Positions 6,251 through 17,077 of a stretch of 64,000 bases of DNA are shown piece after piece. Position 1 is the first letter of the stretch. Each line of letters begins with the position of its first letter. A program made the translations under genes and the position numbers. Under the pieces are notes generated by a model, which saw only the letters and a list, made by a program, of their open reading frames with translations, had not been told where the DNA came from and ran no database searches. The DNA is from Candidatus Kerfeldbacteria bacterium (GTDB lineage: Bacteria; Patescibacteriota; Patescibacteriia; UBA10025; JAHIVO01): the NCBI GenBank assembly GCA_047946875.1, contig CP181398.1:1169329-1233328 (forward strand), read 5' to 3'.

Positions 6251-7048
6251 TTATTTTTTCAATTCAACTACATCAAGTGTGCGATTATAAATCGATGCTG
6301 TCTGGCCGGCATCAACATTCCAGCCAACCTGAAAAGTATGTGATCCAGCAGTAACATCTACCAAGGCATTGAAGGCCATGTTAAATGGACCGCCGGAAGA
6401 AGCGGCAGTTCCTCTTCTAATGGTGTGATCAACTATTGTCCCATCAACAATTAAAAAAGTCCTGGCTGAAACAAAGTCATTATTAATACTAAATACCCCA
6501 CTGAAATTAATTAATACGGTGCTGGCGCCAGTTGTAACAACAATAGTTTCATCTAAAATATCATAATTTGGGGAATTTTGTGTTGTTGTATCCGTAGTTG
6601 TTCCATAAGCTTCACTCGTTTGAGTTATGGCGCCGGCTGCAATATTGGTAGATGTTACTATCCCTGTCCCCATCAAACTTCCCACCGTCAATGATCCGAT
6701 TACTTCCATATTATCATTTACGATAAATGGCATGGTATCACTTGTCCCAGCTGTAGCACCACGCCAAACACGACCGTCTATTCTTACATTATCTCCAAAG
6801 GTCACAGGGTTATCAACACTATTGGTTGTTGTATCGTTTACAATAGAGCCGTTAAAGTAAGTTACTCCTCCAATATCCTGTTCCCCGATCATAATTGAAC
6901 GCATTTTCATAGTTCCATCAACTTGATAAATATCTCCTTCCGGTCCAAATTGGGAGGTGACATTGTGTGTGGCCGCAGCATTTACAATCCCCACCGTTAA
7001 TGCGATGGAAATGATCACTACCAACGATGTTATTAGTTTTTTGTTCAT
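6251..7048 (-). CDS. secreted fibre-like protein, paralogue A (conserved N-terminal half, C1q/TNF-like-looking C-terminal head)
   Basis: ORF track, 265 aa. Signal peptide ending VNA-A. About the first 130 aa align with 15173-16045 and 16160-17077. The C-terminus is unrelated to theirs. Confidence 0.8.
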   Translation of the reverse strand: MNKKLITSLVVIISIALTVGIVNAAATHNVTSQFGPEGDIYQVDGTMKMRSIMIGEQDIGGVTYFNGSIVNDTTTNSVDNPVTFGDNVRIDGRVWRGATAGTSDTMPFIVNDNMEVIGSLTVGSLMGTGIVTSTNIAAGAITQTSEAYGTTTDTTTQNSPNYDILDETIVVTTGASTVLINFSGVFSINNDFVSARTFLIVDGTIVDHTIRRGTAASSGGPFNMAFNALVDVTAGSHTFQVGWNVDAGQTASIYNRTLDVVELKK

Positions 7049-15116: not shown

Positions 15117-15152
15117 TAAAAAATCACCCCATATTACAGAGGTGATTTTTTG
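15117..15152. terminator. bidirectional hairpin terminator after fibre paralogue B
   Basis: ATCACC...GGTGAT stem flanked by an A-run and a T-run. Confidence 0.6.
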
Positions 15153-15172: not shown

Positions 15173-16045
15173 TTAGTATATTGCCAGCATAAATACACCA
15201 TCGGCAGGATTTTCATCTTTATCATGTTCCCAAACTAAAACGGTATTTGGATCAGATGCATGAGGAGCAGCGCCAATTAATCTAATAGCAACAGCACCGC
15301 CTGTACCACTTGGAGTAGCGATGTAAGCTCTAGTTGGTGTACCTGAACCATTATTTACAGCAAAATTGAAAGTTACTTCATATCTACCATTGCCAGTATT
15401 TGTGGCAGCAGTAGCATTATATCCACTAGTTAACGTACCTCCTGAACTAACATAGGCCCATCCTTTTAATGCTCCTTCAGCAGATACGGCCTGGGTGATG
15501 TTACCAGTAGTAGTGACTGTGTCAATACTAAGATCGGCAGTTGAGGATATATCGCTTCCAGTGATGGTTCCATCGACAATTTTAGCTGAGGTAATTGCAT
15601 TATCAGCAATGTCAGCGGTGGCAATTGTAGCATCAGTAATATTGTCAGATGTTACTATCCCAGTACCAAGTAAACTTGCTACTGTTAATGATCCAGTAAC
15701 TTCCATATTGTCATTGACAATAAATGGCATTGAATCTGCAGTACCAGCTGTTGCTCCGCGAAAAACACGTCCATCTATACGGACGTTATCACCAAAAGTA
15801 ACGGGATTGTCTACTCCGGCGTTTGTTGTGGTATTGATTATAGATCCATTGAAGTAGGTTACTCCACCTACACCCTGTTCACCGATCATCGTTGATCTCA
15901 TTTTCATTGTCCCATCTACTTGAAATATGTCTCCTTCTGGTCCAAATTGTGAAGTGACATTGTGACTAGTTGCAGCATTGACTATCCCAGCTGTCAAAGC
16001 AATAGAAGCAACTACCACTACGAGGGTTAAAAGCTTTTTTTTCAT
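15173..16045 (-). CDS. secreted fibre-like protein, paralogue B
   Basis: ORF track, 290 aa. Signal peptide VNA-A. The N-terminal ~145 aa are almost identical to paralogue C. I-x-D-x-x-I-T repeat stalk. Unique C-terminal domain. Confidence 0.8.
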   Translation of the reverse strand: MKKKLLTLVVVVASIALTAGIVNAATSHNVTSQFGPEGDIFQVDGTMKMRSTMIGEQGVGGVTYFNGSIINTTTNAGVDNPVTFGDNVRIDGRVFRGATAGTADSMPFIVNDNMEVTGSLTVASLLGTGIVTSDNITDATIATADIADNAITSAKIVDGTITGSDISSTADLSIDTVTTTGNITQAVSAEGALKGWAYVSSGGTLTSGYNATAATNTGNGRYEVTFNFAVNNGSGTPTRAYIATPSGTGGAVAIRLIGAAPHASDPNTVLVWEHDKDENPADGVFMLAIY

Positions 16046-16114
16046 AGGCCTTTTCCTTGTTTAGTTGTTAAATTGATAAATAATCACGATTTTATTATAC
16101 CCTTTTTTTGATAA

Positions 16115-16151
16115 ACAAAAAACCGCCCTAGTTGATAGAGGCGGTTTTTTC
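16115..16151. terminator. bidirectional hairpin terminator after fibre paralogue C
   Basis: AACCGCC (16121-16127) / GGCGGTT (16140-16146) flanked by an A-run and a T-run. Confidence 0.65.
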
Positions 16152-16159
16152 AAAAGTTT

Positions 16160-17077
16160 TTACATTTCGTAAATTATAAAACTAAATGAAGTTTGGCCAG
16201 CTGACCCGGTAGATTCGTCTACAAAATCAACAGTAAAATGATCATTTACGCTATTTGTAGCCGGAATAAATCCAGAATTTATCGGTGTAACAACCGCTAC
16301 ATGAGTAAGATAAGAATAAGTTACCCCAGTAATAGTAATTTCATATTGATTACTACCACCGTCCCAGGAACAAGCTATGTTACTGGTACCACCTCTATCA
16401 GAGCCATCTGAATTACAATAACCATAGGCAATAGGCAGATTGGCACCGCCCGTACCATTGATCTTGTCAGGTGTTATAGCGTCATCAGCTACATCTGCTG
16501 TAGCAATAGTTCCGTCTGTAATTTTTGAACTAATTATTGAGTTACTGGCTAAATCTCCAGATACAATAGTTCCGTCTGTAATTTTAGCTGAGGTAATAGC
16601 ATCATCATCAATTTTTGCAGTTGTAATTACGCTATCAGCTATGTCTGCTGTAGCTATAGTAGCGTCAGTAATATTGTCAGATGTTACTATCCCGGTACCA
16701 AGTAAACTTGCTACTGTTAATGATCCAGTAACTTCCATATTGTCGTTGACGATAAAAGGTTGAGTGTCTCCTGTTCCGGCAGTTGCTCCGCGAAAAACAC
16801 GTCCGTCAATACGAACATTATCACCAAAAGTTACGGGATTGTCTACACCGGAGTTTGTAGTGGCATTGATTATAGATCCATTGAAGTAAGTTACTCCACC
16901 AACACCTTGTTCACCGATCATAACTGATCTCATGTTCATTGTTCCATCTACTTGAAATATGTCTCCTTCTGGTCCAAATTGTGAAGTGACATTGTGACTA
17001 GTTGCTGCGTTGACTATCCCAGCTGTCAAAGCAATAGAAGCAACTACCACTACGAGGGTTAAAAGCTTTTTTTTCAT
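16160..17077 (-). CDS. secreted fibre-like protein, paralogue C
   Basis: ORF track, 305 aa. Longer I-x-D-x-x-I-T repeat stalk. Unique Cys-containing C-terminal domain. Confidence 0.8.
   Translation of the reverse strand: MKKKLLTLVVVVASIALTAGIVNAATSHNVTSQFGPEGDIFQVDGTMNMRSVMIGEQGVGGVTYFNGSIINATTNSGVDNPVTFGDNVRIDGRVFRGATAGTGDTQPFIVNDNMEVTGSLTVASLLGTGIVTSDNITDATIATADIADSVITTAKIDDDAITSAKITDGTIVSGDLASNSIISSKITDGTIATADVADDAITPDKINGTGGANLPIAYGYCNSDGSDRGGTSNIACSWDGGSNQYEITITGVTYSYLTHVAVVTPINSGFIPATNSVNDHFTVDFVDESTGSAGQTSFSFIIYEM

Follow-up and report, generated by a model that had tools for sequence, protein, structure and literature searches.

Genes A, B and C, three ORFs in the 64-kb window (the whole stretch of DNA analysed here) of an ultrasmall CPR bacterium (Kerfeldbacteria), probably encode paralogues of a Sec-exported, phage-fibre-like modular protein family that is largely restricted to Patescibacteria and whose tips are exchangeable. 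Judged by profile searches, this family has no Pfam or NCBIfam model and is undescribed in CPR bacteria. All three proteins are publicly annotated as 'hypothetical protein' and form singleton clusters in databases, A and B having exact matches among public Kerfeldbacteria MAG proteins. Searches of A, B and C against Pfam-A and NCBIfam returned no family that reached its curated threshold, and the ~100-aa N-terminal module (N-module) that they share is without a Pfam, NCBIfam or PDB relative.

Modular architecture of the three proteins

A first-pass annotation of this DNA had proposed three secreted ORFs, and all three proved to be real, each lying on the minus strand and beginning with a Sec-type signal peptide. 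Gene A (15173..16045; 290 aa, XOU94324.1) encodes a secreted fibre-like protein. Its signal peptide (codons 1-24, 15974..16045; MKKKLLTLVVVVASIALTAGIVNA/A) shows, by sequence reading, a K-rich n-region, a hydrophobic core and a VNA/A site. It is followed by the conserved N-module (codons 25-122, 15680..15973), where the family HMM matches residues 47-122 with 132 bits and where invariant columns are found; its core sequence is GEQGVGGVTYFNGSI..NPVTFGDNVRIDGRVFRG..PFIVNDNMEVTGSLT. A neck and a decapeptide-repeat stalk occupy codons 123-185 (15491..15679), as delimited by alignment, by 30-nt periodic repeats and by PHROG tail-fibre matches at residues 117-184. The A-type head (codons 186-290, 15176..15490), placed by head clustering in a class of 24, ends in FMLAIY.

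Gene B (16160..17077, minus strand; 305 aa, XOU94325.1) is a tandem paralogue of A whose stalk is longer and whose head is B-type, and a repeat search of the window put the two start codons 1032 nt apart. The signal peptide (codons 1-24, 17006..17077) is identical to that of A as protein and at 70/72 nt as DNA, and residues 2-27 form a helix in the structural model. The N-module (codons 25-122, 16712..17005; family HMM, 131 bits) has 94% amino acid identity to that of A and is modelled with pLDDT ~80 at residues 80-125. The neck and 7-8 decapeptide repeats (codons 123-205, 16463..16711) were recognized by a PHROG match, a PDB repeat match, DNA repeats and turns in the model. The B-type head (codons 206-305, 16163..16462; CSW..YEITI..FSFIIY) is a small eight-strand beta-sandwich belonging to a class of 16.

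Gene C (6251..7048, minus strand; 265 aa, XOU94314.1) is the third paralogue and has no repeat stalk. As the first-pass annotation had recognized at the protein level, it shares the N-terminal domain: its N-module (codons 25-122, 6683..6976; family HMM, 137 bits) has 81-84% protein identity to those of A and B. The synonymous sites are saturated, and at the DNA level the sequences link C to A and B weakly; the repeat search too recovered the three-copy N-module, in which B is 86% and C 66% identical to A. The expectation that this protein ends in a C1q/TNF- or BclA-like domain was also borne out, the C-type head (codons 151-265, 6254..6598; C-terminal end TLDVVELKK; class of 34) being a TNF/C1q/BclA-like jelly-roll. 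The three N-modules are thus 81-95% identical in amino acid sequence, yet they carry three different heads.

RNA folding revealed an intrinsic terminator, a hairpin with a U-run, 3' of gene A (15120..15150, minus strand; -13.8 kcal/mol, z -3.5) and another 3' of gene B (16112..16155, minus strand; -18.0 kcal/mol, z -5.4), whereas a consensus terminator scan flagged hairpins within ORFs instead. Because of the terminator behind B, A and B should be separate transcription units.

The I-x-D repeat stalk described earlier was recovered in both A and B as a 10-aa unit, I-x-D-x-x-I-x-x-x-(D/K), with a 30-nt period and about 3-4 copies in A. Tandem Repeats Finder left these repeats undetected, as they are too divergent at the DNA level. 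The stalk of B matched the tail-fibre family phrog_892 (2.7e-13, residues 135-206), and stalk matches extended to the tail-fibre family phrog_28766 (3.6e-10). In the PDB profile search only the stalk was matched, by 9eg4_H 'orf16' (E 9e-4), a capsid protein or trimeric decoration protein of Legionella phage LME-1. The AlphaFold2 monomer model of B, in which the stalk and part of the N-module reach a pLDDT of only 55-65, has no intrachain strands at residues 49-216, and 3-residue turns recur every 10 residues along the stalk. Such an absence of intrachain strands is what would be expected for interchain beta-structure, and homology and fold suggest that A, B and C would be trimers.

The heads of A and B had been thought to be unrelated. 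They are only ~18-22% identical and BLASTP finds nothing, but a profile-profile comparison gave 94.8% probability (E 5.5e-8) over 82 columns of the stalk-free head, by which the two are homologous and anciently diverged. For both classes, orthologous heads of 62-63% identity occur in other genomes; for instance, the A head is 62% identical to that of L001 from another genome. In structure, the B model comes closest to phage fibres and fibre tips, with phage tail fibres as top BFVD matches. The heads fold as lectin, TNF or CBM-like beta-sandwiches and not as enzymes. Elsewhere, B-type heads directly follow a signal peptide, a heptad-like segment (probably a coiled coil) or another fibre repeat; this joining to several scaffolds suggests that the tips are mobile.

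The family and its recombination

An exhaustive profile search at E<=1e-3 retrieved ~457 family representatives, largely from Patescibacteria. We located 130 relatives in 76 loci, mostly of Patescibacteria MAGs, and extracted 98 family members, which often stand in tandem arrays. They are small (230-360 aa) and, by their signal peptides, Sec-exported. The plan of a conserved base, a repeat stalk and an exchangeable tip, first suggested for the genes of this window, holds family-wide: a Sec signal and one ~100-aa N-module precede a stalk that varies (it consists of phage-fibre repeats or collagen Gly-X-Y, or is missing) and a head from one of more than 50 classes. Gly-X-Y stalks, absent from A, B and C, occur in 4/254 members as 8-12 triplets directly after the N-core, and many members have no shaft at all. 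Some members show tandem duplication of the N-core, two or three times over. Peptidase_S74 (42.6 bits, cut-off 22) and Phage_depo_C (29.2 bits, cut-off 25) each occur in one relative.

The front halves of A and B had been called almost identical. It is correct that 403/444 nt (90.8%) are shared from the ATG through codon 148, but with 41 differences the wording was too strong. Moreover, the identity is mosaic: nt 1-138 are 98% identical with 3 differences, against 38 differences in nt 139-444 (p 2.8e-4), and dS rises from 0.07-0.11 in codons 1-46 to 0.52-0.56 in codons 47-148. The 60 nt upstream of the starts are at random level (24/60 identical). Past codon 148, a 30-nt indel (one decapeptide) and ~60 nt of weaker similarity precede the background level, so that the identity is lost within the decapeptide-repeat stalk. 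High identity stops near 15600 (A) and 16632 (B), and residual similarity near 15564 and 16566, respectively; the proposed sharp boundary is therefore a real step, although 15640 and 16660, where it had been placed, are 40-75 nt too early.

Comparison among genomes supports gene conversion or tip swapping in the family. In three genomes, N-modules are 83-94% identical within the genome across head classes. Between genomes, heads of the same class share 49-75% identity and the N-modules in front of them no more than 63-80%; the N-core baseline for different classes in different genomes is 62%. N-modules thus cluster by genome and heads by class, a pattern that requires recombination at the N-module/stalk junction. 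The cassette exchange or gene conversion proposed for A and B is in line with this pattern in at least three genomes and with the mosaic identity of the pair. Among the 66 informative members, the nearest N-core belonged to the same genome and another class in 11 and to another genome and the same class in 34; the latter figure implies that homogenization is episodic and not universal. The 64-kb window proved to contain no silent head cassettes.

Proposed function and alternative explanations

In our preferred explanation, the exported chains would trimerize, nucleated by head and shaft, and the shared N-module would dock all paralogues onto one common cell-surface element. The heads, with lectin, TNF/C1q or CBM-like folds, would each recognize ligands of their own, in all likelihood glycans at the surface of partner or host cells. 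Recombination at the N-module/shaft junction would drive the evolution of the repertoire: gene conversion would homogenize the N-modules within a genome or, to the same effect, resident N-modules would receive new tips, and the head classes would be maintained across genomes. Surface anchoring and host binding are what we infer here, and the family appears to be a good candidate for surface recognition by likely host-dependent CPR bacteria. A more far-reaching version, which we put forward tentatively, is that these are miniature, phage-derived trimeric fibres by which Kerfeldbacteria and many other Patescibacteria recognize hosts or surfaces, that their N-module plugs into a lineage-specific surface socket, co-evolving with it by gene conversion, and that their tips are shuffled across the more than 50 classes to track host surface glycans. 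It is conceivable, in the same reading of the family as a host-recognition apparatus, that some tip classes are shared with other fibre scaffolds and other phyla.

On the other hand, the proteins might be soluble, released trimeric lectins or effectors in which the N-module is a structural or oligomerization element and not an anchor. We regard this as rather unlikely, though it has several points in its favour. The Sec signal is cleavable by sequence reading, and no LPXTG motif, lipobox or C-terminal transmembrane segment is visible in the sequences of A, B and C. Across the 76 loci no conserved partner gene was found, the best neighbour being an ABC transporter at 16 loci. With neither an anchor motif nor a conserved neighbour as docking partner, attachment to the cell is unsupported and the proteins could be released. 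The doubling or tripling of the N-core in some members would also be more natural for a shaft element than for a docking domain. However, the simplest explanation for the homogenization of N-modules within genomes is co-evolution with a genome-specific partner that the paralogues share. Phage receptor-binding proteins (RBPs) and BclA are anchored through a conserved N-terminus. The Bdellovibrio MAT fibres are anchored in this way too (PMC10769870). That all of these closest analogues, which follow the same logic, are so anchored also argues against release.

An improbable alternative is tandem duplication followed by divergence without recombination, with purifying selection on the N-half and diversifying selection on the heads. 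A and B are neighbours on the same strand, omega in their N-half is ~0.1 and their heads are homologous, so that an old duplication could, in principle, account for this pair by itself. However, purifying selection cannot keep synonymous sites alike (dS 0.07-0.11 vs ~0.5, next to heads of ~18-22% identity). Set against the 62-63% of the cross-genome head orthologues, the 94% of the A and B N-modules implies that the head classes predate the species and these N-modules postdate it. Furthermore, the clustering of N-modules by genome is also seen with non-homologous heads (C with A and B, L001 with L019, L023 with L018). Thus, plain duplication is disfavoured.

That the genes are remnants of a prophage, tailocin or contractile injection system, and hence genuine phage tail fibres, is very improbable. 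Phage-fibre-type shaft repeats and tip folds are present in A and B, the stalk matches tail-fibre PHROGs and the structural matches are phage fibres; a tyrosine recombinase and tRNA genes also lie 2-3 kb away. Against this, a Sec signal peptide stands on every member, and the N-terminus is completed by a module seen exclusively on cellular, mostly CPR, contigs, and not by a domain that binds the virion or baseplate. The flanks contain no capsid, tail, sheath or baseplate genes, that is, no structural gene cluster, but housekeeping genes (CCA-adding enzyme, RluD and L19, with tRNAs and 16S rRNA in the window) and secreted-protein genes, and no neighbourhood is conserved in the 76 loci. Moreover, neither B nor C matched any of 50,697 phage genomes by tblastn (whose low-complexity filter may hide the stalk), and a pattern scan of IMG/VR found no relative of the N-module.

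Polymorphic toxins, whose loci resemble these in their conserved N-half and variable C-half, and binding proteins diversified by DGRs, which are common in CPR bacteria, are hardly credible, as the 114-nt gap after B and the 115-nt gap after A hold terminators only and no adjacent immunity-size ORF, the heads are beta-sandwiches (lectin, TNF or CBM-like) and not enzymes, and no head-coding sequence in the 64-kb window is repeated or forms a template/variable pair.

Comparison with known systems

Knowledge of how CPR/Patescibacteria locate their hosts and attach to them comes largely from a few cultivated Saccharibacteria. In the literature searched, the current candidates are type IV pili, Pam pili and the type IV secretion system. 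Pam pili of CPR bacteria consist of Ig-like pilins joined by donor-strand exchange and encoded in a conserved pam operon with chaperones (bioRxiv 10.64898/2026.03.03.709456). The proteins described here are set apart from them by architecture: they have no conserved operon, and their N-module, repeat stalk and jelly-roll head differ from pilins. The family is a compact and recognizable protein set whose lectin-like tips can be interchanged and in which recombination has left a clear signature.

The released form considered above can be likened to Chlamydia Pgp3, with its N-domain, triple-helical stalk and TNF-like C-domain, and to the Photorhabdus TNF-like lectin, although both are single genes with other N-terminal parts and identities of only 13-18%. 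BclA, ExsFA and F-BclA of Bacillus and the C1q/TNF collagen-stalk proteins follow the same plan of N-terminal attachment, variable trimeric stalk and jelly-roll. True Gly-X-Y stalks, as in BclA, occur in the four CPR members mentioned above, whereas the proteins of the window have no collagen repeats and, unlike BclA, the CPR proteins have no exosporium context.

Phage tailspikes and fibres share with the CPR genes the sharp identity boundary after an N-terminal attachment module and the exchange of distal modules. In the P22, Sf6 and HK620 tailspikes, in T7-like phages and in multi-depolymerase phages, a shared N-terminal adaptor is joined to unrelated receptor-binding parts. The stalk repeat of A and B is homologous to phage fibre repeats, and the B head resembles phage fibre tips. 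Unlike phage fibres, the CPR genes lie amid chromosomal housekeeping genes, their products carry Sec signals and the N-module is not in viral collections.

The mosaic adhesive trimeric (MAT) fibres of Bdellovibrio bacteriovorus (Caulton et al., 2024; PMC10769870) are likewise a multi-paralogue set, in a bacterium that lives on other bacteria (PMC10769870). In the MAT and CPR proteins alike, an N-terminal domain that is invariant among paralogues and has no solved homologue bears differing C-terminal tips, and an S74-chaperone subfamily is present in both. A phage-like trimeric shaft is a MAT feature that the CPR proteins would share, although surface display of the CPR proteins is putative and the shaft is missing in many CPR members. 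The proteins A, B and C (265-305 aa) are 2-4 times shorter than MATs (600-1150 aa), and the profile search matches, mainly of 200-450 aa, include few that reach the length of the shortest MATs. The CPR family belongs to a different phylum, and CPR cells are monoderm. The likeness described here is one of architecture. Phage-fibre parts (decapeptide shaft, S74 chaperone, depolymerase end and TNF-like tips) are found here in cellular secreted proteins of a second bacterial lineage after Bdellovibrio. If the more far-reaching reading given above is true, the family would be the CPR counterpart of phage RBPs and Bdellovibrio MAT fibres, and could serve as a genomic predictor of host range.

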